From Psammoneis japonica (Eukaryota): DNA of 33,453 bases. Made by a program: the position numbers and the translations under genes. The notes below the pieces were generated by a model. It saw only the letters and a program-made list of their open reading frames with translations. It did no database searches and had not been told where the DNA came from. The stretch spans positions 124,001-157,453 of the forward strand of contig QPGO01000163.1 in assembly GCA_008632985.1 (NCBI GenBank). Reading direction: 5' to 3'. Positions 3,438 through 32,234 of the stretch are shown here, in pieces (the first letter of the stretch is position 1; each line of letters begins with the position of its first letter).

Positions 3438-3771
3438 TCGCAAGAGGGCTAGCCCAAGGTCATGTCGGCAGCGTTGGACCGACCATGAACAAGTGCTGTA
3501 TGATCGATGATAGCACCGCAAACACCATACTTAGCGCAGCTACAGTGTTCAGGGAGTCGCCTCAAATCTACAATGTTGAAACTCGAATAATGAATATCAT
3601 ATTCGTGAATTAATAGATGTATTAATGACAATATTTATCACACATGTTCACAATGTGTGGTCGTTAATTAGGCTGATGCTCAACACACATACACAAATAA
3701 CATATACCGGTAGTGATTCTGTTCTAAAACAGGTATACGTAATCGAGATTATTGAATAAAAGAGTCATTTT

Positions 3772-8940: not shown

Positions 8941-10154
8941 ACCCCGTGAGAAGATGATGTGGCCCCAATGCAAAAACAAGGATGAGGACATTGAAAACAA
9001 TCCTGATGCAGTCAAGGAACCAGCAGCTGCTTCTGCTGGAGTGATTGAAAGGCCCTCATTGCATTGTGTTGAACAACAGAGATCTTAAAAAAGTGAAAAA
9101 AGTGGGCGCAGTTGTCGCCTTTTTGTGTTTGACCTTTTTCAACTGTGTTCTCAACCTTTGCACAGGAATCTGCACTGAATGTGGGGGTGTGTGCTCAGCT
9201 GTGGTGCAGCAAGCAAGCAAAACTGTGCCGCAAAAGTTTGGCACTCTTGACAGTTTCTGCAGCTCCCCTCTCTGCCACCTGCGCCAGCTTTGTTTTGAAA
9301 GTTGTTGCCCAGCTGTTGTCAGGGTGCAGTCAGGAACTGACAAATTCAGTGCACAAGGTCTGTTGACATGCTGAACTTGCATGTGGTCTTGAGCATCATT
9401 GCACTTGTCAAGCGTTGCTCCTTTTGTTCTTTGCCATCTGCACTTTCACAATTTGGGGTGGGGACATGATCCATGTTGACTGCAGCACCTTGGAGGTCAG
9501 CATCATTTGTTGAGCTTGAGCTGCTGCAAGTGTGTTGTGGCAGCCCCAGAAATTTTTAATGAGTCGAGGACAGTGCTTCCAATTTGTCCTGAACCATTTC
9601 TTTCTTTGGGGCTGATTTTTGGAGCACGTCTGCATCATTCGAACAAAGCGACAAGTTTGTTGTGCAGCATGTCTGCGTCTGTGCTCTGTGGCCATCAAAA
9701 GCAGCATTGAACTCACATTTTCACACAAAAAAGAGTGAGCAACGAGGAAGCATCAGACTTCTTTCTTCTTTTGGGGGTCGTGAGGTGATGCCTCATGCTC
9801 GTGTGCCGCCGTGCTGTCAACATCATTTTCATGTCATGTTTTTTATGTTGGCATCTCAGTCGTGTCATTCACACCACACATTCCGTCCTCGATTTTGCGG
9901 GGGGGGGGCGCTGTTTTACTTAAGGCCCCCCCACGAAATTCAACCTCATTTGAGCACCTGTGACATCCCCCCCCCTCATGCAAAAAATCCGTAGAAGTGA
10001 CAGTCGTCGTCGCGCGCCATCTTTTTGGCCTTTTTCTGGAACGCTTTTCACAACAACGACCCTCATCGTTGTTGCAAGTGCGCACTTCATGCTTCATCGA
10101 TGCCTTTCCTTTTCAACAAGGGTTTGTCAAGAGCCCCTTTGCATTCTCATTGCC

Positions 10155-13100
10155 ATGCCTGCACTTGAAACAATGGGGCCGAAAAGCCAGTCAAGTCCTT
10201 CGCGTCTGAAGAAGTTGAAGCAAAATGCATCGAGGCCGACGCCCCACCCCTTGAACAAGCACACGAAAGAGGGTGAAGCGGAGCGACGTAGAAAGCAAAA
10301 GGAAATTGACGAAGCCAACAAATTCAAATGGAGGTGTGATCAACACAAGAAAAGCAAGAAGATTCGTGAAAAAGTCACAACTCGGGTTGACTTCGGAACG
10401 AAAACGTGCAAACGGTGTGTCACAGGGCCGGGTTGCAAGAAGGGTCACGACGACACGTGCCACAAGAATCCAAGTGCTTCAAATTACAAGCCACCAGAGA
10501 AAATTGTCATTCAAGTTCTGAAAGAGGTAGAGCCAGATTTCCTCATGGCACTGCCACAAGATTGCAGAAACAATCTCATCGCGAGGAGCCTTTTGGAAAG
10601 ATCTTTTTTCTCTTCGCCGGAGGGAAGTGCAGAAAGTGTGCAAGAAGCATTTTTCGATGCATCTGAGTCCTCAGTAGATTCTAATCCACCCAGTGACAAC
10701 AACAATTCAGTTGGGGATGCTCTCAGCAGCGTTGAATCCAAGGATGCATTGAAGCCGTTGCTGCACAAGAAAATGACTTCGTCGCATCTAAAAAAAGCGA
10801 TGCCCGCCGTGATGTCGACGTGGAGCACAAGCAAGAAAGAGCAACTCGCTCAAGACAACATAAAAGTGCCGCTTCCAATTTTGGCATTGCTGGAATTCAT
10901 TCACATGCAATGCCCAAGAGTTTGCACCGACTCCAATGGCGCCAAGAAGCTTGGTGGAGGTGAACAACGTATTTCTTGGTGCCGCGACCACTTTCCGCGT
11001 GGAAATGTTGCGTTCACGGTGCCGTTGGCGGGCAGGAAAGAAAATGAAGTTCCCGACCCAATGTGTGAGTCCATTCAAGGCTCAACAACATGTTTGACTC
11101 GGTGGGAACTGAACATGCCAGACTTGCCATTGAAGTGTTTTTCATGCAGCGACGGATTTCTGGAGCACACGAGGGTGGAGTGCGGCGGCACCAGGTTTGC
11201 AAGCAGTGCGACGCCCGTTTTCAGAATAAAAGGTCACACGGGTTGGGAGCATGGCATCACATGCAAGTGCTCTAATTGTGGAGAGCTTGTCAAGTCGTGT
11301 GATGGTAGACTGCTGCGTCATTCTCTACAAGACTGCGCACGTCGAAGCTTCCCAGCAGATCCCTTGTGTTGCTCGAAGCCATCCTTCTTCTTGCTTCACG
11401 AAGAGGTGTCCTTTCTGCTGGAGGAGGCTGCTCTAACAGAATCAAGTGCACAGTGGGTGTCACGAACGCTCTTCCGAAGTCAAAACCATCGGCACGAAGA
11501 ACTGGAACTGTCACATTGCAGCTCTGACAAGAGTTGCGAGGACAAACCTTTTCCAGACTTTCCATCAATTGAAGAGTGGCGAGGACAGTGTCCGCCATCA
11601 AGTGCTCAGTTGCTGGATCTTTGCGAAGCAGCCAACTCCTCCGATCTTGCCGCGTGTGGCGTGAGCGACGACGACCGTCACAAGAGAGAAATGCAGTCAT
11701 GCGGCTGCGAAACTTCTACAGCCTTCGATCACACCCACGCAATGTTGAGCAACTACCCATCATCACTGGGCGCTCAAGCTTGTGCCACTCAGTCAACTGA
11801 TGCGGGATTCATTACCTGGCTTGGACTTGTCGACTCTACCGCAATGTCAGACAGTGCCCACGGCATCGAGCAAACTGCAAGACGGCCAAACTTTAACCCG
11901 AAGCATGTGCACACGGATGCATGGCCCAATCTTGATCCATTCTTCAAGACAACACACGGATTTGCAATGATCGGTCGACTTGGCTTATTCCATGCAATTC
12001 AGCGCGTCACCAAGTTCATGCGGAAAGATCACAAGGATTTCAACAAAGCTCTCCGCTCTTTCTTGAGCTGCCTGTACAGTCTGAACCAAGAGGATGAAGC
12101 AGCCGTAGTGGCAACACTACGAGACGGGACAATGAATGGCCGCATCCACCAGCCTGATGAGATCTCGGATTTGCAGCACAGCAAGAAGTGGATGGACCGC
12201 TGTGGGCAGTACATCCGAAAGATTCCTGTTCCAGGAGAGCTCGCGAGGATTAAGTTGAGGGACTGGTGGTGCCTGTACAAAGTGAGCAACAGTGATGGTG
12301 AGCCAGCAGGACAAGGAGAGCTGGACAATGGAAAAACCCTGTTCATGGAAGGAGCGAGACAAGCAGTGAGAGCGTTGACGGAAAAAGCTCAGCATCTGCC
12401 AGAGATTGTTGGCGACTGCCACAAGAAACTCACCGCATCTGCCCGATCGAAACACAAACTACCGCGATACATTTCTGAAAAGGGTGAGTCTTCATTGGAG
12501 AAGTTTCACCATCTGCTAGCTCATTTTGGAAACATGGGCATGCGGCGAACGCTCGCCGACAGTTTGAACCTCCGCGGCACGTGTCGATGCAATCTCAAGC
12601 TGTGGCACAAACTATTCGGAAGAAATGCACCCGAGATCCCAAGCCATTTTCAAACTGAACCCATTCATTACAACCATCTCAAGTTGCTAGAGATCAACCG
12701 GAGGTCCGCCAAGCATGGATCCAAAGCACCGCGGCATGAGAATCTACGAGATTGCCCGGAGTGCAGGGGCGAAGAGTTTTTGTCCGAGTGCCTTTTGTCG
12801 CAAAGAAAGAGACGAGCACAATATCCACCCCATCCAACCAACAGTCGCTGCCAATGCCCCAAATGTGCTGCAAATCCGATGCCTCTTCCTCACATCCAAC
12901 GAGCCATTTCACGTGAGCAGTCGGCGGCATCTGCAGTGGCGCCAAATGAAACGGCACCTATGAACAATGACACTGGTGACTTTGACGCTGCTGAGTTTGG
13001 TGTCGACTTTGATGAGCAAGAGTATCATTCTGTGTTTGAAGACACTCCTCCTCAAGAGCAACTTCCCCAAGAAACACGAATGATCCGCGACTTCGCCGTA

Positions 13101-13475
13101 CAGGACGCCTTCCAAAGGCATCAAGAATTGAATTCCGTACCGCCTGCCCCAATCCTCCCCATGCCGGCACCAGCTCTACCATTGCTGCCTCTGCTGCCTA
13201 TTCCTGTAACAAATTTACCAATGTCATTGCAGCAACCTTTGGGCCCACCTACTATTGCGTCGTCGATGCCATATTCAACCTACTGCCAACCCGTTTCTCT
13301 TGGGACAGCGAGTTTTGCAGCATCTGCTCCTGTGCTGCCATCCGCTGTCACTCCAGCTACAAAGAGACGAAAGGTCAAAGAAGAAGAATACTGCTGTGAG
13401 GGAAGAAAAACTCATGTCGAAAATGGTCGTCGGGGGCGGGTCGCTCATACCTTGTGGTGCAACCGAGGAAAGTAA
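10155..13475 (+). CDS. Dada/DUF6729-like DDE transposase, copy 1 (frame open, but probably inactivated by Tyr->Cys/His changes)
   Basis: Zn-binding CxxC...CxxC region followed by SCDGRLL..L...ARRSFP (DUF6729-like). Candidate catalytic motifs AFDHT, HTDAWP, RLGLFH (DxxH position) and KGESSLEKFH (cf. RGxxSLExFH). N- and C-terminal Cys/His clusters. ATG at 10155 is in frame with the track ORF 9960..13475. The superfamily assignment is from motif memory only. Confidence 0.6.
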   Translation: MPALETMGPKSQSSPSRLKKLKQNASRPTPHPLNKHTKEGEAERRRKQKEIDEANKFKWRCDQHKKSKKIREKVTTRVDFGTKTCKRCVTGPGCKKGHDDTCHKNPSASNYKPPEKIVIQVLKEVEPDFLMALPQDCRNNLIARSLLERSFFSSPEGSAESVQEAFFDASESSVDSNPPSDNNNSVGDALSSVESKDALKPLLHKKMTSSHLKKAMPAVMSTWSTSKKEQLAQDNIKVPLPILALLEFIHMQCPRVCTDSNGAKKLGGGEQRISWCRDHFPRGNVAFTVPLAGRKENEVPDPMCESIQGSTTCLTRWELNMPDLPLKCFSCSDGFLEHTRVECGGTRFASSATPVFRIKGHTGWEHGITCKCSNCGELVKSCDGRLLRHSLQDCARRSFPADPLCCSKPSFFLLHEEVSFLLEEAALTESSAQWVSRTLFRSQNHRHEELELSHCSSDKSCEDKPFPDFPSIEEWRGQCPPSSAQLLDLCEAANSSDLAACGVSDDDRHKREMQSCGCETSTAFDHTHAMLSNYPSSLGAQACATQSTDAGFITWLGLVDSTAMSDSAHGIEQTARRPNFNPKHVHTDAWPNLDPFFKTTHGFAMIGRLGLFHAIQRVTKFMRKDHKDFNKALRSFLSCLYSLNQEDEAAVVATLRDGTMNGRIHQPDEISDLQHSKKWMDRCGQYIRKIPVPGELARIKLRDWWCLYKVSNSDGEPAGQGELDNGKTLFMEGARQAVRALTEKAQHLPEIVGDCHKKLTASARSKHKLPRYISEKGESSLEKFHHLLAHFGNMGMRRTLADSLNLRGTCRCNLKLWHKLFGRNAPEIPSHFQTEPIHYNHLKLLEINRRSAKHGSKAPRHENLRDCPECRGEEFLSECLLSQRKRRAQYPPHPTNSRCQCPKCAANPMPLPHIQRAISREQSAASAVAPNETAPMNNDTGDFDAAEFGVDFDEQEYHSVFEDTPPQEQLPQETRMIRDFAVQDAFQRHQELNSVPPAPILPMPAPALPLLPLLPIPVTNLPMSLQQPLGPPTIASSMPYSTYCQPVSLGTASFAASAPVLPSAVTPATKRRKVKEEEYCCEGRKTHVENGRRGRVAHTLWCNRGK

Positions 13476-13729
13476 GGCGTTCTTGGTATCTTTTTGTTTT
13501 GTTCTTTTTTCTATTTGTGTTGGTACACATCACATTACCACTTCCCAGCGTAGATGCATTAATTCAGGATTAGGATCCAACACAGTGGCAACAAACATTT
13601 TACACTTGTATAATTACACCGGTCCACCACACCAACCATTACCGTGCCGTACCGACCAACATTAACGGCACGGACAGCACGGACACCGAGGTCCCATAAA
13701 GCCGGTAGCCTGTCGCAGCCCTACAGCAG

Positions 13730-14180
13730 AAACAAAGGAATAGAAACAACAAAATTGAGAACACGACAACAAAGAAACAGACCCATGACACTCGACACAT
13801 TTCTATTACCTTATATCAATGCTTTTGGAGTGCCCTCGTGGTGCTTGTGGTTGATTGTATTAAGCAACACTGTCGGCCGAAAACAAAACAAAACACTGTC
13901 CAATTAAAAGGAATGGAAACAACAGAAATGTAGAAGGTGCCATCAAAGAAACAACCCCATCATACTCGATATATTCATATTACCTTGTCTTAATGATTTC
14001 GGTGCGTCCTCACAGTCCTTATGGTTCATTGTTAGCAGCAATCTTGTCGGCGGCAGAAAACAAAACTCAAAACACACGCTCTATTTAAACACAATAGAAA
14101 CAAAAGAAATTTAGGAGACACCAACAAAAAAATACAACCATCATACTCAACACAGTCTTTATACCTTATATCAATGCTGT
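13730..14180 (+). repeat. Diverged tandem repeat, about 2.5 units of 173-181 bp (also at about 18300-18745)
   Basis: aat[a/g]gaaacaa recurs at about 13739, 13912 and 14093, each followed by cat.a.actc.a and taccttrtmt.aatg. Confidence 0.7.
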
Positions 14181-14474
14181 TAACCCTCGTATCGTCACAG
14201 TGATGGTCGATTCATGAACGGAGCTAGTCGCCATTGTGCTGCGACGGTTCGAGGGTGGTACGGTAAGTGCGCGTGAGGATTTTTCCTACTGCATGCAGTG
14301 TCTTTTCTGTCTGTCCGTTAGCGAGTGGTCTTAAACGTTGCTGAGTCATAAATGGCTTGAAGACAAAATTATTCTTAAATGTTGCATCGTCATAATTGGG
14401 GATTGCTGAGTCATAATTCACTGAAGGCATGATGTGATTGGCTGAAAATACAGCGTACAAGAATGGGACAACGG

Positions 14475-14665
14475 NNNNNNNNNNNNNNNNNNNNNNNNNN
14501 NNNNNNNNNNNNNNNNNNNNNNNNNNNNNNNNNNNNNNNNNNNNNNNNNNNNNNNNNNNNNNNNNNNNNNNNNNNNNNNNNNNNNNNNNNNNNNNNNNNN
14601 NNNNNNNNNNNNNNNNNNNNNNNNNNNNNNNNNNNNNNNNNNNNNNNNNNNNNNNNNNNNNNNNN
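14475..14665. other. Assembly gap (191 N)
   Basis: Run of n characters. Confidence 1.
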
Positions 14666-14735
14666 CTTCACACTTCATTGACACCTTTCCTTTTCAACAA
14701 GGGTTTGTCAAGAGCCCCTTTGTGTTCTCATTGCC

Positions 14736-17700
14736 ATGCCCACACTTGAAACAATGGGGCCGAAAAGCCAGTCAAGTCCTTCGCGTCTGAAGAAGTTGAA
14801 GCAAAATGCATCGAGGCCGACGCCCCACCCCTTGAACAAGTGCACGAAAGAGGGTGAAGCGGAGCGACGTAGAAAGCAAAAGGAAATTGACGAAGCTAAC
14901 AAATTCAAATGGAGGTGCGATCAGTGCAAGAAAAGCAAGAAGATTCGTGAAAAAGTCACAACTCGGGTTGACTTCGGAACGAAAACGTGCAAACGGTGTG
15001 TCACAGGGCCGGGTTGCAAGAAGGGTCACGACGACACGTGCCATGAGAATCCAAATGCTTCAAATTACAAGCCACCAGAGAAAATTGTTGCTCAAGTTCT
15101 GAAAGAGGCAGAGCCAGATTTCCTCATGGCACTGCCACAAGATTGCACAAACAATCTCATCGCGAGGAGCCTTTTGGAAAGATCTTTTTTCTCTTCGCCG
15201 GAGGGAAGTGCAGAAAGTGCACAAGAAGCATTTTTCGATGTGTCTGAGTCCTTGGCAGATTCTAATCCACCCAGTGACAACAACAATTCAGCTGGGGATG
15301 CTCTCAGCAGCGTTGAATCCAAGGATGCATTGAAGCCGTTGCTGTGCAAGAAAATGACTGCGTCGCATCTAAAAAAAGCGACACCCGCCGTGATGTCGAC
15401 GTGGAGCACAAGCAAGAAAGAGCAACTCGCTCAAGACAACATAAAAGTGCCGCCTCCAATTTTGGCATTGCTGGAATTCATTCACATGCAATGCCCAAGA
15501 GTTTGCACCGACTCCAATGGCGCCAAGAAGCTTGGTGGAGGTGAACAACGCATTTCTTGGTGCCGCGACCACTTTCCGCGTGTGGAAATGTTGCGTTCAC
15601 GGCACCGTTGGCGGGTGGGAAAGAAAATGAAGTTCCCGACCCAACGCATGAGTCCATTCAAGGCTCAACAACATGTTTGACTCGGTGGGAACTGAACATG
15701 CCAGACTTGCCATTGAAGTGTTTTTCATGCAGCGACGGATTTCTGGAGCACACGAGGGTAGAGTGCGGCGGCACCAGGTTTGCAAGCAGTGCGACGCCCG
15801 TTTTCAGAACAAAAGGTCACATGGGTTGGAGCACGGCATCACATGCAAGTGCTCCAATTGTGGAGAGCTTGTCAAGTCGTGTGATGGTAGACTGCTGCGT
15901 TGTTCTCTACAAGACTGCGCACGTCGAAGCTTCCCAGTAGATCCCTTGTGTTGCTCGAAGCCATCCTTCTTCTTGCTTCACGAAGAGGTGTCCTTTCTGC
16001 TGGAGGAGGCTGCTCTAACAGAATCAAGTGCACAGTGGGTGTCACGAACGCTCTTCCGAAGTCAAAACCATCGGCACGAAGAACTGGAACTGTCACATTG
16101 CAGCTCTGACAAGAGTTGCGAGGACAAACCTTTTCCAGACTTTCCATCAATTGAAGAGTGGCGAGGACAGTGTCCGCCATCAAGTGCTCAGTTGCCAGAT
16201 CTTTGCAAAGCAGCCAACTCCTCCGATCTCACCGCGTGTGGCGTGAGCGACGACGACCGTCACAAGAGAGAAATGCAGTCATGCGGCTGCGAAACTTCTA
16301 CAGCCTTCGATCATACCCACGCAATGTTGAGCAACTACCCATCATCACTGGGCGCTCAAGCTTGTGCCACTCAGTCAACTGATGCGGGATTCATTGCCTG
16401 GCTTGGACTTGTCGACTCTACCGCAATGTCAGACAGTGCCCACCACATCGAGCAAACTGCAAGACGGCCAAACTTTAACCCGAAGCATGTGCACACGGAT
16501 GCATGGCCCAATCTTGATCCATTCTTCAAGATGACACACGGATTTGCAACAATCGGTCGACTTGGCTCATTCCATGCAATTCAGCCGTCACCAAGTTCAT
16601 GCGGAAAGATCACAAGGATTTCAACAAAGCTCTCTGCTCTTTCTTGAGCTGCCTGTACAGTCTGAACCAAGAGGATGAAGCAGCCGTAGTGGCAACACTG
16701 CGAGACGGGACAATGAATGGCCGCATCCACCAGCCTGATGAGATCTCGGATTTGCAGCACAGCAAGAAGTGGATGGACCGCTGTGGGCAGTGCATCCGAA
16801 AGATTCCTGTTCCAGGAGAGCTCGCGAGGATTAAGTTGAGGGACTGGTGGTGCCCACACAAAGTGAGCAACAGTGATGGTGAGCCAGCAGGACAAGGAGA
16901 GCTGGACAATGGAAAAACCCTGTTCATGGAAGGAGCGAGACAAGCAGTGAGAGCGTTGACGGAAAAAGCTCAGCATCTGCCAGAGATTGTTGGCGACTGC
17001 TGCAAGAAACTCACCGCATCTGCCCGATCGAAACACAAACTACCGCGACACATTTCTGAAAAGGGCGAGTCTTCATTGGAGAAGTTTCACCATCTGCTGG
17101 CTCATTTTGGAAACATGGGCATGTGGCGAACGCTCGCCGACAGTTTGAACCTCCGCGGCACGTGTCGATGCAATCTCAAGCTGTGGCACAAACCATTCGG
17201 AAGAAATGCACCCGAGATCCCAAGCCATTTTCAAACTGAACCCATTCATTGCAACCATCTCAAGTTGCTAGAGATCAACCGGAGGTCCGCCAAGCATGGA
17301 TCCAAAGCACCGCGGCATGAGAATCTACGAGATTGCCCGGAGTGCAGGGCGAAGAGTTTTTGTCCGAGCACCTTTTGTCGCAAAGAAAGAGACGAGCACA
17401 ACATCCACCCCATCCAACCAACAGTCGCTGCCAATGCCCCAAATGTGCTGCAAATCCGATGCCTCTTCCTCACATCCAACGAGCCATTTCACGTGAGCAG
17501 TCGGCGGCATCTGCAGTGGCGCCAAATGAAACGGCACCTGTGAACAATGACACTGGTGACTTGACGCTGCTGAGTTTGGTGTGACTTTGATGAGCAAGAG
17601 TGTCATTCTGTGTTTGAAGACACTCCTCCTCAAGAGCAACTTCCCCAAGAAACACGAATGATCCGCGACTTCGCCACACAGGACGCCTTCCAAAGGCACC

Positions 17701-18050
17701 AAGAATTGAATTCCGTGCCGCCTGCCCCAATCCTCCCCATGCCGGCACCAGCTCTGCCATTGCTGCCTCTGCTGCCTGTTCCTGCAACAAATTGCCAATG
17801 TCATTGCAGCAACCTTTGGGCCCACCCTGTTGCGTCGTCGATGCCATGTTCAACCTGCTGCCAACCCGTTTCTCTTGGGACAGCGAGTTTTGCAGCATCT
17901 GCTCCTGTGCTGCCATCCGCTGTCACTCCAGCTACAAAGAGACGAAAGGTCAAAGAAGAAGAACACTGCTGTGAGGGAAGAAAAAATCATGTCGAAAATG
18001 GTCGTCGGGGGCGGGTCACTCATGCCTTGTGGTGCAACCGAGGAAAGTAA
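14736..18050 (+). pseudogene. Dada/DUF6729-like transposase, copy 2, frameshifted
   Basis: Same protein as copy 1, split over ORFs 14736..15680, 15557..15940, 15673..16647, 16599..17543, 17333..17584 and 17610..18050. Small indels near 15580, 15830, 16585, 17347, 17560 and 17790. Confidence 0.85.
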
Positions 18051-20647
18051 GGCGTTCTTGGCATCTTTTTGTTTTGTTCTTTTTTCCATTTGTGTTGGTG
18101 CACATCACATTGCCACTTCCCAGTGGATGCATTAATTCAGGATTAGGATCCAACACAGTGGCAACAAACATTTTACACTTGTACAATTACACCGGTCCAC
18201 CACACCAACCATTGCCGCACCGCACCGACCAACATTACGGCACGGACAGCACGGACACCGAGGTCCCATAAAGTCCGGCAGCCTGTCGCAGCAGAAAACA
18301 AAGGAACAGAAACAACAAAATTGAGAACACGACAACAAAGAAACAGACCCATGACACTCGACACATTTCTGTTACCTTACATCAATGCTTTTGGAGTGCC
18401 CTCGTGGTGCTTGTGGTTGATTGCATCAAGCAACACTGTCGGCCGAAAACAAAACAAAACACTGTCCAATTAAAAGGAATGGAAACAACAGAAATGTAGA
18501 AGGTGCCATCAAAGAAACAACCCCATCATACTCGACACATTCATATTACCTTGTCTTAATGATTTCGGTGCGTCCTCACAGTCCTTATGGTTCATTGTTA
18601 GCAGCAATCTTGTCGGCGGCAGAAAACAAAACTCAAAACACACGCTCCATTTAAACACAATGGAAACAAAAGAAATTTAGGAGACACCAACAAAAAAATA
18701 CAACCATCATACTCAACAAGTCTTTATACCTTATATCAATGCTGTCAACCCTCGTATCGTCACAGTGATGGTCGATTCATGAACGGAGCTAGTCGCCATT
18801 GTGCTGCGACGGTTCGAGGGTGGTACGGTAAGTGCGCGTGAGGATTTTTCTACTGCATGCAGTGTCTTTTCTGTCTGTCCGTTAGCGAGTGGTCTTAAAC
18901 GTTGCTGAGTCATAAATGGCTTGAAGACAAAATTATTCTTAAATGTTGCATCGTCATAATTGGGGATTGCTGAGTCATAATTCACTGAAGGCATGATGTG
19001 ATTGGCTGAAAATACAGCGTACAAGAATGGGACAACGGAAAGACCTCAAACATAAAGTTTATTAAAGACTAAATAACATATAAATTTGGGTGTTCGCAAA
19101 GATTTGACTAGTTGGACTGCTCAGTTTTTGGTTGTCTCGGCGAAACATCGTTCCGCTGCGACCTGCTCAACAACGACGTCTCAGTAGCTCGACAAATCAT
19201 CAAAAACGAATCAAGCACACTAAGACGCGTCAAATGGTAGTAATTTGTTGAGCCACTGAACCGAATTGACGAAGAAATGATGATTTGCAGTGACGCCTTC
19301 ATGTCTTCGTCGACACGACAAATGATGATGCCATGCACGATCGATGGAAGGCAGATGGAACATTGGCTCCGACATGTTCAACTTCACGGTTGACTTGATG
19401 ACTCTCTATCATCATGCAAGGTGGGAACTTTTTGCAGTGCGATGTCTCAAAACATGAACTTTGCTGCGTGCCCTCACTCAATTTGTGCACGTTGAGTGAA
19501 GAGCAAATTGACATTTGGGCCAATGGCATGGCCCCCATTGACAAGGTTCTCCTGAACGTGCCACCAAGAAGTGCACCTCTTCCGGGGCAGCTGAAGCAGG
19601 TGGCAATGAGGAGTGAGAAATGAAGTTTTTGCTGGTTTTGCTGGTTGCGACTGCAGTGAGTTTTGTCTGTGGAATGTTGGCATTGTTTGCATTGCTGCAG
19701 TTTGGTTTGTCTGGTTAAAGAACCATCTGAGGGTGGGCAAACAAACAGAGTTCATGGTTGCATCTTGCTTGATGCAGTGCTGTAAGGTTCCAAATGACAT
19801 TGGAAGCATCAGAGCAAACTGCATCATCAAAAGCAAAGTCATGGGCCGCTCGTCACTTGGTGCAGTCGTAGTTCGAGAATGCTGTTCACCACCACATGCC
19901 ACACTCGGTTTGTCACAAGCAATTCATGCTGGATGGATTTGATCTGTGCCACATGCTCAATGACAAGACTAGCTGCTCAAGCTTGATGAGAAGAAGCACT
20001 TCAAGTTCAGAGTTGATCTTGAGCTCCATGCCCAAGGGCTCCAACCAGGAGATTTGCTGCTGTGTTAAAAACCATTCTCCTGAAACAATGCGAGGAATTA
20101 AAAGGAACGAGTGTCAGCAGCAGGATTGGCATCAATGCAAAAAGTTCTTTGAAAAAATTTCATCCTCTGTGTCCACTGACATTCAATGTGCAGTGCTGAA
20201 CAATGCACAATCCTCTTCTGCCTGCACTTGCCTTGTTGCTGCCGTGTTGTCGATGGTGGCGATTTAGTCTCTTGGTGATTGTGCCCGTTGCTCATCATCT
20301 TCTCCTCATGTCGTTGCATTGAGCATTGTTGGGTTGATTGATGAGTGATGACAGCACGAGAGTGAAGCCGACATTTTAGTTGGCAGAAAATTTACATTGA
20401 ACATTCATTTTGAATGCACTCTCATGATGGGGTCTTTCAGCACAAAGTTGGAGCCAAGGGATTGACACTAAAGTCTGGGAGCACAGCAAATGGAAGACAA
20501 ACAGAACGCCAGTGCATTTTCTGTGCACTGTGACTTCCGGGTTCTTGCCGACTGTCGTGTGGAGTGCAAGTCACGATTGGTGAGTCGTGGGCAAAAATGT
20601 CTGAAATCTGTCCTTTTGAGAACGAAACAACACGGTGAAGCACGGGG

Positions 20648-20812
20648 CACCATGGCGCTCTTTGGATGCCATCATCTCAAAATCTAATGGGGCGCACGAC
20701 TGTGTCTTGAGCGCAACTCAGCTTTGTAGATAAAATTGTGCCCATTGGCCATGCGACGCTTTCACGCACCCCATTAGATTTGAGATCATGGCGTCCAAAG
20801 AGCGCCATGGTG
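20648..20812. mobile_element. 165-bp hairpin/MITE-like element with about 51-bp inverted arms
   Basis: caccatggcgctctttggatgccatcatctcaaaatctaatgggg ... ccccattagatttgagatcatggcgtccaaagagcgccatggtg. No clear TSD. Confidence 0.7.
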
Positions 20813-21501
20813 AAGTGATTTTGATGTTTTCTGGCTCAGCAGAGATTTCCTTGTAGAAATCCAGTGCAATCACACGCAGAAATTCAAAAATCTCTCGGGT
20901 GCACATCACAAACTGTTGCTTTTCAACAACATTGCTGTTCATCAACGTTTGGGGTGTTGAATGATGGGAGATGGGAGCGAAAGGTCCAGTGCTCATGGAT
21001 GACACTTCCTCAAGTGGACAAATGAAAAGCTGTTGGTTTGAACGTCCTTTACATGCGATTGTCATTTTTTACAACATTGTCAAGACTGTTCTTTCTCTGA
21101 ATGTCACAGCAGCAAGCACACCAACACATGTGCACACACTTGGAGACAAATGGATGCTTCACCCCCACTCAGCCAAGTTGAGCTTGGAAGCTCCCTTTTT
21201 GTTGCCAGACATGAACCTTCTTCTTCAACAACCTTGCTTGCATGCTGTCGAACTGCAATGTGCAGCACCCACTGGTTCAGTGTCATCATCATCGATGCAT
21301 CGTGACCCCTTGCACAAAACACATCTTGCAATGACAAGGTGGACGCGCTGCGCCCGCGTTGTCGGGAGCAAGTGCTGCTCCGATTGACGCATCATTTGCT
21401 CATTTCAACCACAGTGAAGTTCAACATTCTTGAGCACTTCTAAACAAACTTGACGGATTGCCATCCACGAGTCGAATGGGTTGAGCAACACTGGCACGAA
21501 C

Positions 21502-21897
21502 GACGCGTTCCAGACGCAGGTGGGAATCCGTGTGACATTGGGCCCGCAGACTTCTACGTGTGAGTTCCGCAGTAAAATCATGCGGTGATTAAAGTGTCAA
21601 TGATCGCCAACAGAAAATGAGGCAATTTTGCGAACACACAAACTCGCCCATGATTGAAGCACATCATTTTTTACTTGGCCAGTTGCACTCTTCAGACATT
21701 GAAGAATGCAACTGGCACATTGTTGTTTCTATAAATTTGTCACATAAAACGTCTGGGGCTTCGCAAAACAGCGAGTCTGGACAATTTTTTTTAAATGTCA
21801 CACGTAGAAATCTACATGCGAAACATGCGACGGATGACAAAAATCATTTGTGTCACACGTCAGTGCTGCAAGCTCCCACCCAGGGCTGGAATGCGTC
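21502..21897. mobile_element. MITE family copy A (396 bp), 4-bp TSD GAAC
   Basis: gaac|gacgcgttccag..ggtggga ... tcccacccagggctggaatgcgtc|gaac. Confidence 0.85.
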
Positions 21898-22374
21898 GAA
21901 CGAACAAATGTCCAAGACTCATTTGTCCAGCACCATGCTTCGTGGTGTGTCTGTTGCCTTGACCTTCAAACAACCTCTGCCGCATGGAGGACAGCTGAGG
22001 ATCATGGGCGGTGATCTTGCACAGTGCGTTGCTTGTACAAACTTGTCAATGGCACATTCCTTTCCTCTGGCATGCATCAAAAGAAAGACTGATCCAGCTT
22101 CCAACACCGTCCGTGATGCCAGAATGACGTGTGATTTTGAATCGCACAATGGCCACAGCAGCAGAGCAACAACAACGACACGAGCAACAACGGTGCAGAC
22201 ACCACACCGGCTTTGTGTCAGTGTGTGTGAAGCTTCACAAGAGTTTTGCGTGTGTGGTGACCACGCAAGATGATGCGAACACAGAATTCCACACGACGAT
22301 TGGCGGTCTGTCCAACTGTGCATTGCTCCCAGACTTTAGTGTGCAATCCCTTGTTGGAGCCACAGAGTGCTGCA

Positions 22375-22764
22375 GACGGGCTCCAGTCCCAGGTGGGACT
22401 TTTTGTGACATTTGGCCCGTAGAATTCTACGTGCGAGGTCCGCATTACAAGAATTTAATCAATGGATGTTCATGTCTTCAACATCAAACAAACGACCAAG
22501 TTTGTGGTGCAATTGTGACCATTGCCGCTTGACGTTTTCGGCAATCTGCCTGCCCTGCGCCATTCTTGGGACATTTGCAAATGGCGTAGAAGAAAAAAAT
22601 GTCAAAAGTTGTTGGACGGATCGCTCAACAAGTGCACCACAAAATGACACAAAATTTCAGAAAAGTCACGCACCTTTCTACGTGCGCGACACACGGTGCG
22701 ATCCAAAAAACTGTCGACATCACAATTCAGCAGTGCGAGGTCCCACCCAGAGCTGGAACGTGTC
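22375..22764. mobile_element. MITE family copy B (390 bp), 4-bp TSD TGCA
   Basis: tgca|gacgggctccagtcccaggtggga ... tcccacccagagctggaacgtgtc|tgca. Confidence 0.85.
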
Positions 22765-23632
22765 TGCACTGGAAGTTGCCGCAAACACGGGGAAAGTGTG
22801 TCAGATGTTGCCTGGCATGCCATCACGCGTCTCATGTGACATGGATCAAACAACATGCGCAGGACATTTAAATCGCAGAATCTTTCCGTTGAGAAAAGTC
22901 AAATTTCCTTTTCCAGCTGCATGCGCGCATGTTCACATGAACAATTCTTCAATGCCAATCGCATTCAAATCTTCAAATTTAGAGATGATTGATGAGTGGA
23001 CCCCGCAGTCGAATTCTCCATGCCCGAAAACATGGGAACCGACACTTCATCTGCTGAAAAAGTCCCGCTGGTTGTTCTGGTGGCATCTAAAATGTGCTTG
23101 CATTTTCGCGCAATTTTTCACCGATTTCTCCCTCCACCATGGCGGACCCTGTGGCTGCCCCCACCGGGGAAGGACATTCACTCCAGCAACCTTGGACGCC
23201 TGACAACATTGTCAGGGAAATGCCAGATGTGTCAGAATTGCTTGGAGTGGGAACAGACATGTGTTTTGCCTGTTGAAGACATGCCGCGAAACCCGGCACC
23301 ACAGTCTGCTCCCGAAGCACCCTCTGTTCCAGTGCTTCCCCCTTCCCAAGTCTTCCTGAGCAGCCACCAGTGGCCAGAGAGCTTGAATGTGACTCAGCTT
23401 GTCCTGCAAGGCATCACAACAAAGACAAGCCTGAAAAATTCCGAGCGGACTTTGTCGTGATGGCGGATGCCCTTCAGCATTTGTGCTCCATCTTGATGCA
23501 TGCCAAGGGAAGAACCAAAACAACAGCTGCATCAATGAGAGGAACAACCATTAGAAAGAAATTTCTGCAGCAATCTTGCATCTGTTTCATTGGACAGCAA
23601 AATAAAAACCATTGGAACAGTTGAGGAACGAC

Positions 23633-23996
23633 AAAAAAAAAGTCAAACGTTCTCGGCGACATTGTCCCACATGTTGTCACTGTGCAAAAAGCTGACAGAG
23701 ACTGCTTTCAAATCTTTCATGTGTTCCACCTTGTTTTGTTCAATGCACGATAGAATGCCATTTTCGTTTTGCAACGCGACATGCAATTGAGCAACGAAGT
23801 TGCCAAAACTGACATTGTAAAAAAAAGTCAAACGTTCTCAGCGACATTGTCCTGCATGTTGTTGCTGTGTAAAAAGCTGATAGACTGCTTTCAAATGTTT
23901 CACATGTTCCACCTTGTTTGTTCAAAGTGTGACAGAGTGCCGTTTTGTTTCGCGACATGACATGCAATTGAGCAACGAAGTCACCAAAACTGACAC
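23633..23996 (+). repeat. Tandem duplication, 185-bp period
   Basis: gtcaaacgttctc at 23642 and 23827; gcaattgagcaacgaagt is present in both units. Confidence 0.85.
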
Positions 23997-24420
23997 ATTG
24001 TTTGGCATGCATCGTCACAGTCTAATCCATGCTTTCCATTCAGAAGGAGCCCAACGGATTTGCTTTCCAGCATCTTTGTCACTGTCCACAACTGCGGTGA
24101 CACCGTTGTCGGTGGGGATGAACGACACAGTCGGAATGGCCGCTTCCAACTTCAGAACCGCTGTCAAATGCAGCCCAGAATGATGCCATAAAATGGCAGC
24201 TTCAGAAAACAAAAGATGAAAAAGCAGTCTGCAGTTGGCGCAACGACAACAGAGACAATGGCAGAACAACATTCAGCGCCAACAAAAGGACACTCACACA
24301 CGTCATCACATGTGTTCTGCTCACTTTCGCTGTCCATGTCAACAGTGAAAAAATCATGCAAATCACGAGCCATTCGGCCGAATTTGAGCTAAAAAAAGCA
24401 GCAACCAACCACTCTCAAGC

Positions 24421-24527
24421 AAAACGCACAACGATTTTGGCGCGCAACTGCGGGGTCTTTTGGACACGTCGTTGACGATTCCAATCTGCCAGAGGTGTCG
24501 AAACAAAAATGTGCCTTTGGAAAGCTC
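24421..24527 (-). repeat. Solitary inverted partial copy of the 29890-30745 repeat unit
   Basis: The reverse complement reads agagctttccaa...gaccccgcagttgcgcgccaaaatc...cgtttt, as in the array units. Confidence 0.75.
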
Positions 24528-24569
24528 TAACTCTCCAGACAATCAACATAAACTGTAAAATGTGTGTGT

Positions 24570-25960
24570 GTTGTTTGCTGCAGGCACTCTTTGACCGTTG
24601 GTGGCGAAAGGCCGAAGGCACAAATGCCACCAATTTGGTTGTGATTGAAACAAGTGCAGCAACTGGCCAGCAAAAATGAAACCCTCAATTGCTCACATGC
24701 GTGTGGATGCTCGCAACACAGCTTCCAATCACTGAATGCACGACACACCCTGAACAGATTTGCCACCATGCCACAACTCCACTCAACTGCAACGCAAACA
24801 CATTTCATTCGAAAATTCTGTAGAATTTGGATTGGTGCAAGTGGGGCACCTTGAGCAGGTCGACATGCCTGTCTGACACATTGCATGGCCATGAACCCTT
24901 TTTCAGTGTATGCTGCACGGACCTTCCCATTTGGAAACCGGCCTTGTTGGAGCTGCAACAAGCAGTTGTCAATGCCGCTGAGTTCTTGAAGCCTTGCATC
25001 GGCTCTGAGCAGTCAAAAGGGAAAGCAACATTTAGTTTGGGTGTTTTCATGTGACTCATTGGTGCACACAAGGTCGCTGCTTGCCTTCCAGCTGACACTG
25101 GGCCCCACACAATTGAGACTCCATTTGGCAAGGAGATGTTGAGGACCTTTGTGCCATCCAATTTTTTGTGCTGCATGTGCGCTGACCGCTGCACGTCGCA
25201 GGCGTTTGGCTTTCTAGGTGCATGGACCCAATCTCCAATGGGACCTGTTCCTGGGGTCTCCATCTCAAAGATGGAGCTGTCCATGAATCCAAGCATGTTG
25301 AGCACACCATTCGCAAACCTGCAAACCCAGCACCAAACGCTGCACTTGATTCAATGGACATGTCCAACGTGAAGGTGCAGCTAATTTTCGTTCAATTGCA
25401 GCCGCAAATCGTGGAAAGTCATCCACCCATCGCTCAAGACTGTTTCTGTCCAAGAGGTGCCCAAACCGGTGCTCAGTGTGCCGAAGGAACCAAGGGCATC
25501 CATGCAACCACCACCTGGCGTTGCCACCAAAGAAACCTTCACACAATCTGACGTTGTCGAGTCCAGTCGCAATCTTTGTCAAAGAAAACAAAAAGAGCTC
25601 TTCACCTCCAAACACATGCATTTCATTGCCGGCTGCTGGAACTCTTGTGGCTTGTGGCAGACCAAAAAGTGCACACAGGCGGTGCACCTGCTCACGGTCA
25701 AACCGTGTGCAAATCCTGAGCCACACATTGGAGCAGTTGTCAATTGGCCTGTGTCTAACTCACTCAAAGCTTGGATCCATTTCAAGCTCTTCTTGGAATG
25801 GAATGTCAGCAAGGGCTGCATCTTGCCTCACCCAATGATCTGCGAGACGACAACCTGCAACCAAAGCTGTCAACGAGCAAGCCGCACCAAAATTGAAGGG
25901 TTGTTCATCATCCAATTCTTCTCCCAAATCCAAATCTGCAAGGTCATGCTCATGATTGAT
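24570..25960 (-). pseudogene. PIF/Harbinger DDE_Tnp_4 transposase, frameshifted and Tyr-depleted
   Basis: Motifs in the expected order: TRFDREQVHRL, EELFLFSL, LGFMDSS, QRSAHMQHKKLDGTKV..LPNG..VWGPVSAGR, VAVEWSCGMV, LLASCCTCFNHNQ, FGLSPPTVKECL. Confidence 0.85.
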
Positions 25961-26344
25961 CAGAAGAAGAAAAATGGCAAGAAATGCCGTCCAATGAATG
26001 ACTCCTTTCAAGGACATGGACCAAAGCAAATGGCAAGCATGCAACAAAGATTGACCGCCGGCGGGAAGCGCATGATTTCTGCACTGGTGAGAAGTGCACC
26101 TCGTTGCAGCACGGTGGCGATGTCCATTGTGGCGGTGAGGAGCCCTTGGCATTTCCACTGCAGTTGTTTTGTTCTTTCTCCATTTTTTGTACATGCTGGT
26201 TTTGCAAACGGGAAGCCGCTTTGAACAACCCACACGACATGGTCGCTGCTCTTGTCGCACGACTTCGGAGCTTGCGGCTTCACTTGAAGAGATGATTTTC
26301 TCAAATGGCAGAAAATTTCAACACATTTGCGCATGCAGACAGAC

Positions 26345-26475
26345 TTTCCCCTGTTTCCAGGGAAAAGTTTTCACTTTCCCCATTTTCACTTTCCCCGTTT
26401 TTACTTTTCCCGGATTTCTTGGGAAAGTTTGAACTTTTCCCATTTTTGCTTTCCCCGTTTTTTGCTTTCCCCTTT
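26345..26475 (+). repeat. Cluster of about 15-bp TTTT[C/T]RCTTTCCCC repeats, possibly transposon subterminal repeats
   Basis: ttttcactttcccc x2, tttttacttttccc and tttttgctttcccc x2. Lies upstream of the Harbinger ORF; a related motif occurs near 29355. Confidence 0.6.
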
Positions 26476-27305
26476 TTTGCACAACGTTGTAGAAATCTTT
26501 TTTGTTGCAACCATTTGTGTTGAGGCTGGACAGATGTTTGGTGCCATTTTTTTAAATGGCTCGTGATTTTTGAATTTCCCCGCACTTCGCCCATGTTATT
26601 TTGCGAAGCCTCTGAGCACCCCCAAACACATGTGAGAGTGTCCAGGCCCCATCAGGGCTGTCGGACCTTTGTGTGAACTGCACATGTTGACCTTCAAACG
26701 CCAATTGTCATGCTTGCCTTGGTTGTCACATGCGACAAACCGCCACTTTCCACCAAAATTGGACTGTTGCGGTAGACAAGCCACAACTTTCCAGGAAATG
26801 CCGACAATTGGCGTTTGACTGGCTGTTGGCATGTCTGCAGTTGTCAAGCTACACATCGCGCATGGTCGCAACCGTCACATGTGCATTCTATGTTGTCCTG
26901 CAAAGAGACAAAGTTCGACCTGTCGCTGATTTTTTTTTGGCGAACGCGCGCATCATTGGTGTTACAAATCCGGGTTGTTTTTAAACATTTACGAGCTCTA
27001 AATGAAATCGACCACTGAACAACAATCCATCCTTAAAACTGAAACCGTCATTGTAAAAAACATTGTTTTTATTGCGGCAAATCGTTTTTATAAGAACAAA
27101 ACCATTTTTGTCACTTCAACAGTCCCCGCTCGCTCGCATCCACTGTCACCCAGTTTCTCTCTCTCCCCCTCTCTTCAATGCTTGTTGTCTGACCATTCTT
27201 TTGTCATCCAGCTGGCTTGTCATTTCAAGAATGATTTGTTTGCTGGCTCTAGAGCACTCTGCAACATACAGCCCTGTGCAAGCGGGGCTCTCACATTTCT
27301 CAGCT

Positions 27306-27701
27306 GACGGGTTCCAGTCCCAGGTGGGACTTTTTGTGACATTGGGCCCGCAGAATTCTACGTGCGAGCTCTGCAGTAAAATTGTCAAGCAATGCACACA
27401 TGAATGATCGCCAACAGAAAAAGAGGCAATTTTGCGAACGTGTCTTCTCCTCCACACTTGAAGCACATTCTTTGCAGCATGCCCGGGTGTGTTCTTTAGT
27501 CATTAAAGAACACACCCAGTGCATTTTTGTTGACGTGGGTGCAGACAACAGAAAGCCTTTGGCTTCGCAAAACAGGCAGTGTGGAACAATTTTTTACAAT
27601 AGAGCACGTAGAAATGTGCGTGCAAAACATGCGACGGATGACAAAAAATAATTGTGTCACAGTTCAGCAGTGCGAGGTCCCACCTAGAGCTGGAACACGT
27701 C
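27306..27701. mobile_element. MITE family copy C (396 bp), 4-bp TSD AGCT
   Basis: agct|gacgggttccagtcccaggtggga ... tcccacctagagctggaacacgtc|agct. Confidence 0.9.
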
Positions 27702-27712
27702 AGCTCCCCACC

Positions 27713-28540
27713 ATGTCGACAGCTTCTTCTCCTGTCGATTTGTGCTCCTCACCCAAGAATGGTGACGACGGAGCCAACAACAATGTGCCATTGCGCTCTG
27801 CACTAAAAGCAAAAGCAACGCCTCCGAGCTTCTCTGCTCCAAAGGAGAGGCTGCTCCACTCGTCATCTGAGTCTGACAACGATGAGCTGTTTCGTTCATC
27901 TGGATTGAACGTTGCTCGTCCTGGTGCTTCCGAAAAAGTCAAGAAGGAATCTGCCAGGAAGAAGTGCAATGAAAACTGGATGGAGAAGTGCAACCAAGCA
28001 TGGGATCTGATGGAAACTTCAATGCTTGCGTTGCTTTGCCCGACCAATCCTGTTCATGGCTGGACACTGCAACAGCAGGAGGGAGTCGATGAATGCGATG
28101 AGCATGTGTGCCAAGGCCACTCCCCCGACAATTGGGAAAAGCATTTTGGCACCAGCCATGCCTTGACAAGTGATGGGATTCAACTTGTCTGCCCCATCAT
28201 TGCTGCCTTCACAGACGCCAAGCGTGACAGTGCCAAGCGTGATGACAAGACGAGGAAGAAACAACATGGTCACTCCAGCGTCGGTGGCATCCACGCGGCT
28301 TCTGCAGTTGCTTGCCCTCCCACCAAGCGCGGCAAAAGCAACAAGTGTAGATTCTCTTTTGCAGCCAATGGGCTTCCATTGAGTTCTGAGTTTCAATGCA
28401 AAACCTGACTCAATCAGGCATTGTGCCATTCATTCATTGAGTTTGCCAATTGCAAGTTGGAGCATGGAGCATCAGCAAAGAACAGGGGCCACTTTATGGC
28501 AGGCAAGGCGTGGTTGAAAGCTTGCAAGGAAATTCATCGG
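27713..28540 (+). pseudogene. Degenerate protein-like ORF of unknown family
   Basis: MSTASSPVDL... has protein-like composition but no Tyr in about 230 codons. It continues in frame after a TGA at 28406. Possible splice donor gtgagt at 28541. Confidence 0.4.
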
Positions 28541-29889
28541 GTGAGTGTCCACTGCTTGCATCTCATTGCAGTGTTTTCCAATCTTGTGCTCATGCTGATT
28601 TTGGTCTGCTGTTTTCCACAAGAGCGCAAACCATGTTGATTCAGCGGAAAGTGCCTCTCATCCATCTTGAGTTGGTCCTGAAATGATGGAGCATTTGGCT
28701 GTTTACTTTGGCACAGGTGGCTTCCATGAACATGTCTTGCAAATGCAGGCATTGTGCCGGTGGCTTCCCCATGCCATGCTTGACAGCCGGTGCCGCATCT
28801 CTGGCACTTTGCCATTGAAGTTAACTCGAGAACCATCACAGCTGTGCGAGCAACATCATCACACCATTTTGCCAAGCCATTGCAGTGAGATGACATTCCC
28901 ACTCAACATTTTATGAGAAGCTTGCCATTTGCAGTTTAGCATTCCGCAGCTACAATGTTGTGGTCTCCTGCCGTCGCTCCACTGCTGAAGAATTCTTTAC
29001 ATGAAATGCTCGAGTGCACTCCATGCATGCTCCAGTGGCTCTAGCCAGCTGCTCTCTAGCAGCAGCTGCCTCTCCACTGGAGGGCTGCTGCTGGAGCAGA
29101 GAGTGGAGCAGCTGGAGCTTGCTGGCAGCTAAGCTGGTGGCCCCATCTCACAAAGTGCGAGTGCCAAAATCCCATCAGGCAACATGAAAGACTCGTGGCT
29201 CATGATGGCAACCGTGGCTGAGTTGTTTGTTGTGGTTTCTCCCAAGGGAATGGATGAAGGCCAGGCGTCGCATTAAAAACGAGATTTTTTTTAATGATGG
29301 TTTCAATTTTAACATTGATGGTCGCAATGAAAAGATTTCTACAAAATTGTGTTTTCTACTTTCCCCGTTTTCAGGGGCATGCGTTGAATCATGACCTTGT
29401 CATTTGGCGCCATCATGTCAGACGCTTGACGTGCAATTTTGCGGCCCGCATGTGGCCGCAAAATTCTCATCGCAAATTTTTGCGACCCACATGTGGGCCA
29501 CAAATTTGCCATGCTTCTTAAAACAAAGCTTGTCTTGTTGCTGTTTTTGCGTGGGAAAAAATCAATGTTGTGACAGCAGTGTGGCATCCTGTCATTTGCT
29601 TCACCGTGGTGAAAACCGCAAGCCACAAGCATGCGACGGAAGTGTGCCGGCTCCGTGCTCTCATTGGTGCCATGCTCGCCATGCATTGTGTGGTCAGCAT
29701 CAGATGACAGCATGGAGGCGGAACGCTGCATTTTTGAGAAATGTCGACGATTGCATCATCGTCGTGCTTCGATCGCGGTGCGCGGTGCCGATGTGGGAAT
29801 GTGGACAATTTTTGTGTTCAAAAACAAACACTGACAAATGGCCTTGTTCAAATCGCGTGGCAATTCCAGGACAAATGAGGGGGTGACCC

Positions 29890-30745: not shown

Positions 30746-30839
30746 CTTGTGGCTTCCTGCAGGTCGAATGCCAAAGTCAGATGAGCCATTGAAAACACGC
30801 TGTTTGACCCAAATGTGAACTTGCTAAACAGCAATTAGA

Positions 30840-31960: not shown

Positions 31961-32234
31961 GTGCTGGTGTCACCGCATCTCATGGCCCGTCGACATCTTT
32001 TTTCTTTTTTGGAGCTGAGGGTTCTCGAACAATTCATGTGAGCATCTTACGAGAGGATTGCGCAGGAGATGTGCCACCGATGTTCCGAGAGAAAATGACT
32101 TCAAGTGCTGAAAATCGGCTCACAAGTCATGTGATCGGCAAAATGACGCGACTTCGTTGGACTTCGCACGGCTTCGCGAGGCTGCCCGCCAGCTCATTGA
32201 ATCTAATGACCCAAAATGCCTGATGAGCAGAAAA

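Follow-up and report, generated by a model that had tools for sequence, protein, structure and literature searches.

Copy-specific edges of TpA loss in a putative DNA transposon family of Psammoneis japonica: a possible record of an advancing silenced domain

Introduction

Where does a mutator of mobile DNA begin, in which direction does it proceed and what makes it stop? These questions are raised by a 33,453-nucleotide stretch of the Psammoneis japonica genome (GenBank assembly GCA_008632985.1, contig QPGO01000163.1, positions 124,001 to 157,453 of the forward strand; hereafter the window), which holds two copies of a putative DNA transposon that have lost the dinucleotide TpA (TA) over different parts of their length. 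Reports of TpA hypermutation have so far been limited to one alga and gave neither an enzyme nor a targeting rule. A preliminary description of the window held that the mutated domain has a movable and fading edge and that targeting follows a chromatin or small-RNA domain rather than primary sequence alone. Here, the family members of the element are compared across the assembly, and the edge may well be the front of a silenced domain that advanced from the 5' half of the element towards its 3' end.

Results

Direction of the TA loss

The element is 4,585 bp long and complete in copy 1 (window 9890-14474, + strand); its ends were set at the breaks in alignment against six other assembly copies with different flanks. 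At least eight close copies (96-98% identity) were found at three assembly loci through genome searches and fetched stretches, the counts from genome searches being lower bounds (Table 1). More diverged pieces occur on contigs C34, C23, and C27.

The window segments 10085-14474 and 14666-19038 are 96.7% identical. In their pairwise alignment, 47 TA steps of copy 1 read CA (n = 26) or TG (n = 21) in copy 2 and the reverse was seen four times; these 51 direct TA differences compare with four transversions, and 58 "other transitions" were mostly adjacent CA/TG pairs. Across eight copies, there were 161 TA-class variable sites and 40 other non-CpG substitutions. A site was scored when it was TA in some copy (n = 127) or CA in some copies and TG in others (n = 34, a few of which may stem from CG). 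Both strands are mutated, as seen from the CA and TG counts in copy 2 and from TG shares of 49/106, 54/105, and 40/68 in other copies. Several Tyr residues that are invariant among homologs of the encoded protein are Cys or His in copy 1 (e.g., codons at 12201, 12420, and 12789), and of the 14 homolog-conserved Tyr codons in 10155-12000, copy 1 keeps TA at one. Because these Tyr codons read Cys or His here, the direction of mutation is TpA to TpG or CpA, i.e., TA is lost. Among family members from other organisms, only 0-2 columns with Tyr to Cys/His variation were found in each of seven clusters, with short members left out (2/9 in cluster 2, 1/10 in cluster 4, and 2/9 in cluster 7).

TA context affects the rate of mutation, with per-strand values of 0.42-0.48 for TAC/TAT and 0.20 for TAG/TAA. 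Strand-coordinated runs were not found in seven rows (212 same-direction neighbors, 223.6 expected, p = 0.89), a test in which repeated rounds of mutation could mask tracts. Non-TA A>G changes in several copies (10143-14099, polarity taken from one outgroup) lay directly beside a mutated TA in 7/20 cases, compared to 6.5% expected (p = 0.0002), which fits bystander deamination or a sloppy polymerase and is a possible fingerprint of the enzyme. Enrichment of ApA is a sign of polymerase eta and was not significant among these changes (10/20 vs. 36% expected, p = 0.15).

Edges of the erased domain

TA retention was mapped site by site along the family copies, as the preliminary description had proposed, and the stopping point differs from copy to copy. 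Change-point fits to nine copies, using susceptible contexts only and 2000 permutations each, were significant in five (0/2000 permutations each) at 12.6, 13.73, 13.92, 14.1, and 14.1 kb; the edges thus remain after the resistant TA class has been dropped. The test detected no edge in C16a, C75a, C75b, and C34 (p = 0.24-0.85). That the edge is movable, in the sense that its position differs between copies, is a solid observation.

In copy 1, the TA kept in five successive segments amounts to 8/27, 11/30, 14/19, 33/35, and 42/43, and this profile persists with sites defined without copy 1 (8/25, 11/30, 14/18, 27/29, and 39/40). The non-coding tail retains 59/62 of all TA sites, and from 12950 on none of 65 CpG has been lost. 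Two steps describe the copy 1 profile better than one (bootstrap p = 0.02, 300 replicates), which modestly supports a fading edge in this copy. The skew in Tyr content by which the edge was originally noticed is present: Tyr stands at codons 178 and 601 and then 10 times at codons 708-1146 (2/707 vs. 10/466, Fisher p = 0.005 with the split point picked post hoc). The later part of copy 1 is TA-rich, as described; retention starts near 11750 rather than near 13000, with mutations interleaved up to 12789. In copy 2, the losses do run further along, being dense to 18427, sparse to 18746, and absent beyond. The island that follows has TA observed/expected ratios of 0.66 and 0.63, dropping to 0.11 in the TA-poor DNA after it. 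A paired test of TA present in copy 1 only and in copy 2 only gave 7:4 (10085-12000), 8:0 (12000-12950), 22:0 (12950-13730), 9:0 (13730-14100), and 1:0 (14100-14475).

Time order of the erasure

A TA can become CA or TG, and two copies that disagree at a site were thus mutated separately after their split. CA/TG agreement across loci is at chance (276/544). Within the array on contig C16, the sites mutated in both C16a and C16b show conflicting states in 2/44 cases before 12400 and in 11/38 cases beyond that point (p = 0.005). Because these disagreements concentrate after 12400, the founder of the array is reconstructed as half-erased, with TA retention of 0.26, 0.47, 0.69, 0.68, and 0.93 in the five segments. 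This profile would be close to that of present copy 1, and its 5' mutations differ from those of copy 1 (13/31 agree). C16a now keeps 7/27, 10/30, 6/19, 10/35, and 15/43. CpG differences between C16a and C16b are equal in both halves (11/118 vs. 9/99), as are other differences (7/1928 vs. 6/1696), which implies a single split over the whole length, and a later conversion of one half is no explanation. The series copy 1, C16 founder, C16c, and C16a likely indicates a front that took the 5' half first and moved toward the 3' end. Since the C16 founder had a half-erased profile like its own, copy 1 is probably a real intermediate and not a chimera.

Array position, CpG loss, and flanks

Over the last 575 bases (13900 on, copy 1 numbering), array-terminal copies keep 62/72 TA and array-upstream (first) copies 25/72. 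The corresponding figures at the 5' end are 14/16 for outer and 12/24 for inner copies (p = 0.02). Free ends are spared and array-internal ends are not, and the fact that identical 3' bases fare differently by array position bears out the view that targeting is not by primary sequence alone. Since its split from copy 2, C16c has mutated 9/34 TA inside the domain and 0/30 outside (p = 0.002). With edges set from TA data alone, CpG loss amounts to 33/484 inside the edge and 0/110 outside in three lineages (p = 0.002). Loss of CpG is the usual trace of 5-methylcytosine (5mC). Diatom transposons form CG-methylated islands that overlap H3K9me/H3K27me3, according to the available portion of PMC9998398.

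The arrays on C16 and C75 are TA-poor blocks adjoining TA-rich flanks, and a gene of the window at 834-3530 keeps a TA observed/expected ratio of 0.4-0.65. Erased flanks are neither needed nor sufficient for erasure of the element. Spread from such flanks as the sole cause was rejected, as the C16 and C75 arrays are erased next to TA-rich left flanks and an element on C142 keeps TA though both its flanks are erased. This C142 element (L078:6060-8252), an internally deleted relative of 2.2 kb, has its TA preserved in the 3' kilobase and close to the 5' end. Small RNA genes beside the insertion were also rejected as the cause of the 3' island, with no Rfam matches in four sources.

Relationship of the two copies and assembly of the window

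Derived states shared by copies 1 and 2 (7/23 and 7/14) are no more than expected by chance, and copy 2 shares 27/27, 19/19, 20/20, and 21/22 with C16c. Judged by these states, the two copies are not sister duplicates, and copy 2 is a near-twin of C16c. Copy 2 and the 14.4 kb of flank that follow it up to the contig end (14666 on) match C16:418441-437275 at 99.3% identity. The right flank is probably a second haplotype of the C16 locus, and its substitutions relative to C16 are mostly CpG and TpA transitions and allele-like. Indel events in the flank number 16 in the last bin and 0-6 in the other bins, and indels between window and C16 are deletion-biased (45 gaps in the window, 9 in C16). An assembly gap is the most likely origin of the run of N between the copies; intact arrays measure 200-205 bases over the corresponding interval. 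On the simplest reading, copy 2 and the right flank represent the second C16 haplotype, joined to copy 1 through the repeat, although a recent real rearrangement may instead be involved. The adjacency of copies 1 and 2 is doubtful because copy 2 and its flank are near-identical to C16 and the N run intervenes. The original picture of two neighbors reached to a variable extent by one spreading domain therefore falls, with derived states shared at chance and the twin of copy 2 on another contig; their difference is better read as one of stage or locus. In this assembly, haplotype duplication can confound comparisons of TA between neighboring copies.

Searches for a second allele or an empty site of the left flanks of copy 1, C16, and C75 gave only the assembled copy, and C164:54001-133889 matched C16:388-448 kb in short repeats only. 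Since their split, C16c and copy 2 have acquired new TA mutations at 9 and 2 of 34 sites and lost 19/202 and 8/199 CpG, respectively. Their lineage appears to carry a natural crossover: 6/7 shared markers upstream, as well as the marker at 12054, go with C16a, and 14/17 from 12420 on go with C16b (two adjacent rows for one change were counted once). The frameshifts of copy 2 are probably sequencing errors because contigs of run X1 carry the missing bases. One DNA run, and among those listed no RNA run, contains the stretch. In this DNA run with collapsed contigs, none of those listed spans the region and two copy 1 bins are without cover, so that phase is neither supported nor refuted. Contig depths of 33 for the left flank, 64 for the right flank, and 215-276 for the element fit 7-8 copies, depth being no strict copy number.

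The element and its product

The long open reading frame (ORF) of copy 1 probably encodes a DDE-type transposase, as judged from conserved D, D, H, and E motifs in an alignment of its homologs. These are eukaryote-type proteins, one of them labeled Cylindrotheca closterium at 27% identity. A weak Pfam match to DUF6729 (PF20499) was found in 2/11 aligned proteins (best E = 0.0012), and the Atlas feature match was 0.96 to a cluster with DUF6729 in 16% of its members. For copy 1's own protein, no Pfam match above cut-off was found, and an RNase H-fold check gave no solved-structure match to the protein better than E = 0.23. DUF6729-related putative transposases of eukaryotes count 2139 representative proteins at E ≤ 0.001. 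Compared to these, the present element is without a visible terminal inverted repeat or target-site duplication and occurs in head-to-tail arrays with a 5-bp spacer. Visual inspection of 8 left and 10 right ends showed neither a terminal inverted repeat nor a target-site duplication. Obvious terminal repeats are absent from some DDE groups.

The spacer between tandem copies (C16:413667-413673 and 418240-418246; C75:203438-203444) repeats the first five bases of the array's 3' flank, and the left array end shows no duplication matching it. This pattern suggests in-place amplification via a circle or insertion just beyond the element's own end. The fold of the 5' stem-loop is weak (-13.1 kcal/mol, z = -1.96), 7/200 shuffles being equally good. 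Contig C34 (218777-241294) carries an older copy (89-92%) that is interrupted at 12814-12817, where about 22.5 kb of other sequence intervenes.

Other features of the window

The gene at 834-3530 (minus strand), an ORF of 898 aa, has a P-loop-like motif and matches ResIII weakly (E = 0.024). Its TA content is normal, and it contains an exact 93-bp internal tandem duplication at 3104-3291; it has a 98% inverted paralog at C164:58510-60909 and several 80-88% relatives. TA-poor DNA at 1-775 consists of a 387-bp tandem duplication (97.4% identity), which we take to encode a Copia RNase H-like fragment. DNA with normal TA gives way abruptly to TA-erased DNA at about 4000, and inverted repeats of 76-102 bp (80-88% identical) lie on either side of this switch at 3790-4392. 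An array of ~180-bp tandem repeats with units 72-79% identical lies at 29891-30744.

Table 1. Close copies of the element and features of the window (window coordinates unless a contig is named)
Feature	Position	Strand	Details
Close copies at window			Copy 1 (W1) and copy 2 (W2)
Close copies on contig C16			Three head-to-tail: C16a, C16b, C16c
Close copies on contig C75			One full (C75a); one with internal duplication of 11312-12991 (C75b, C75c)
5' terminal G-tract/C-tract stem-loop	9890..9940	+	Common to family members; motif at 10 places in fetched stretches
Long ORF of copy 1	9954-13475	+	1173 aa; uninterrupted 1106-aa part 10155..13475
Copy 1 erased zone	10085..11716		Susceptible TA kept 9/41
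Copy 1 transition zone	11717..12821		15/23 kept; mutated conserved Tyr codons 12420, 12588, 12789 interleaved with kept TA
Copy 1 near-intact zone	12822..14474		62/65 kept
Diverged sub-repeats of ~173-186 bp, 3' tail	13734..14181	+	71-78% identical, self-BLAST
Change-point interval, copy 1	11717-12959
Change-point interval, C75c	13722-13741		Copy 1 numbering
Change-point interval, C16b	13914-13931		Copy 1 numbering
Change-point interval, copy 2 and C16c	14095-14133		Copy 1 numbering
Run of 191 N	14475..14665		Between copies; only N run in the stretches compared
Copy 2 (W2)	14666-19038	+	First 195 bases missing; many single-base deletions
Putative natural crossover, copy 2/C16c lineage	16635..17001	+	5' part C16a-like, 3' part C16b-like
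Copy 2 fading zone	18428..18746		Sparse TA losses
TA-retaining island	18747..19240		Last ~290 bp of copy 2 and ~200 bp of flank
Right flank common with C16:422830-437275	19039..33453	+	99.4% identity, to contig end

Discussion

In our preferred reading, the edge is the leading border of a silenced and probably CG-methylated domain, which advances over time from the 5' half of the element to its 3' end; we assign this reading a probability of about 0.58. The domain would nucleate in the 5' half after insertion and then widen toward the 3' end, and it may be of the 5mC/repressive-histone type as on diatom transposons. Inside it, an adenine deaminase acting on DNA might scatter single mutations over many generations. 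Error-prone repair is an alternative to adenine deamination, and a repair polymerase could likewise work within the domain. Copy 1 would represent an early stage at its own locus and copy 2 a later stage, by descent of the C16 locus.

Several observations weigh against this advancing front. A half-erased founder is reconstructed at one array only, C16, and the C75 founder reconstructs as largely unmutated throughout at the time of its duplication. For C75c and C16c, a second step gives no better fit than a single sharp one (p = 0.75 and 0.21), and 10 of the 11 copy 1 mutations past 11700 are at sites which are TA in no copy now, three of them backed by conserved Tyr. The pattern of spared terminal and erased upstream copies rests on two arrays (three assembly loci in all). 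C16b is internal and yet keeps 21/22 TA at its end, which requires that it became internal recently, and the 3' end of copy 1, array-internal as assembled, is the best preserved, which fits only with an adjacency that is false or recent. Finally, the family recombines near 12.05-12.42 kb, the same zone as the copy 1 edge.

Protection that retreats could produce a similar picture, if the 3' tail and both termini were shielded by bound protein, a promoter, or nucleosome-poor DNA, and the shield shrank or was lost when an end became internal or a copy aged. Islands of TA at the 3' end do persist between erased DNA in copy 2/C16c and in the C142 relative, reaching about 200 bp into the flank, and the gradient has the same direction next to an erased left flank (copy 1) as next to TA-rich ones (C16 and C75). 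The spared zone of copy 1, however, covers 1.7-2.7 kb including GC-rich coding DNA, which is wide for a terminal footprint, and the tail is erased in C16a, C75a, C23, C27, C195, and C327; such a shield is therefore unlikely.

Recombination is another way to obtain half-erased copies, as natural recombinants or conversion products of an erased copy and an unmutated donor, with crossovers for edges and no moving front. The copy 2/C16c lineage is itself a mosaic that switches at 12054-12420, near the copy 1 edge, and C75 has its internal duplication. Among the matches listed in two genome searches, however, no unmutated donor was found, and copy 1 did not serve as donor of the other spared ends because at 13858, 14082, and 14095 copy 1 has TA and these ends show derived states. 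Mutated and retained TA intermingle along some 1.1 kb of copy 1, and the recent C16c mutations still avoid the spared end, which makes crossovers an improbable source of the edges.

Copy 1 might also be an artifact, either a chimera of the assembly, as the preliminary description cautioned, or a consensus that polishing made out of several copies. The locus was hard to assemble, judging from the fact that copy 1 stops exactly at the element terminus beside the N run and that the right part of the window duplicates the C16 contig. Past 12950, however, copy 1 has TA at nine sites for which a single derived state is common to every other close copy, and a majority consensus could not yield TA there. 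A donor 5' half without erasure was not found among the matches listed in the genome search. The graded profile of copy 1 and the independent C16 founder, similar in profile and different in its 5' mutations, render an artifact very unlikely.

Purifying selection on TA in an active copy, or clustering of resistant TA contexts at the 3' end, is largely refuted: copy 1 has an open frame and context does affect the rate, but the frame is expected anyway because TA loss makes no stop codons, the conserved catalytic half is the erased half, non-coding DNA keeps TA (59/62), 19/29 kept coding TA have a silent route, and the edges remain with resistant contexts dropped.

Returning to the advancing front, we tentatively propose, as an idea that is more doubtful than the front itself, that a diatom genome-defense mutator rides on a silencing domain creeping outward from the 5' half and deaminates adenine at TpA, that the TA profile would then be a dated record of heterochromatin spread, and that tandem amplification might push the front through internal ends. 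The genome holds five MafB19-deam, four A_deamin (two loci), and six IMS matches, genes which are expected in any eukaryote. At the three candidate loci read, no fused chromatin reader was seen, and the candidates are ordinary and do not tell the mechanisms apart. Two A_deamin (ADAT1/ADAR-family) genes, L110:4434-5974 and L111:4171-5468, on contigs C40 and C79, are apparently stand-alone deaminase domains, and a TadA-like gene lies on C38.

The family offers a testable targeting rule, as it would place the start of the mutator, its direction, and the cause of its stopping at copy-specific coordinates. If true, mutation maps of repeats could serve as a fossil record of the spread of silencing, and diatoms as a tractable system for finding the enzyme.

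Among known systems, kataegis-like processive single-strand deaminase tracts have neighboring mutations on the same strand, and the present mutations differ in not being strand-coordinated. In repeat-induced point mutation (RIP), the trigger is pairing of duplicated DNA before meiosis; the spared 3' tail of our element is as repeated as its erased 5' half. In ascomycetes, as described in PMC2973834, RIP likewise hypermutates repeats by transitions on both strands, and its spatial edge is graded and differs from one allele to another. RIP creates TA from CA/TG, however, and our element loses TA, which is the opposite direction and gives no RIP signature; the RIP gradient also leaks from repeats into single-copy DNA, whereas the present edge falls within the repeat, with free ends spared.

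DNMT5-dependent CG-methylated transposable element (TE) islands of diatoms (PMC9998398) are likewise silencing domains on transposons, and the D4Z4 array (PMC10620044), with length-dependent methylation gradients that are asymmetric by array position, is an analogy for a front in tandem copies. These marks are reversible, no TpA mutation is mentioned in the portions available, and the link to our element comes from CpG loss only.

The closest parallel is Bigelowiella natans, in which TpA-specific hypermutation affects integrated DNA of nucleocytoplasmic large DNA viruses and virophages (bioRxiv 10.64898/2026.01.13.699255). In the available part of this preprint, TE-type domains are enriched among TpA-depleted coding sequences, and deamination of A is proposed that is possibly guided by RNA or chromatin. 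Its de novo rate is about 1000 times background and active in some lines only, with an ADAT2-type DNA deaminase as candidate. The available main text does not mention a gradient, boundary, edge, diatom, or polymerase; the mutation positions in its supplement may bear on edges. A literature search, with most subscription journals outside its coverage, found TpA hypermutation treated in this one paper and no report of it from diatoms. Both systems convert TpA to TpG/CpA on both strands and are restricted to foreign or mobile DNA regions, but a 4.6-kb multicopy element in another eukaryotic group (likely diatom) is affected here and viral regions of 25-186 kb there. Copy-specific edges, a reconstructed 5'-first order, spared free ends, and matched CpG loss go beyond what that part of the preprint describes. 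The type of mutation is thus known from one preprint, and new here are a map over multiple copies, a reconstructed order of erasure, and the difference between free and internal ends.

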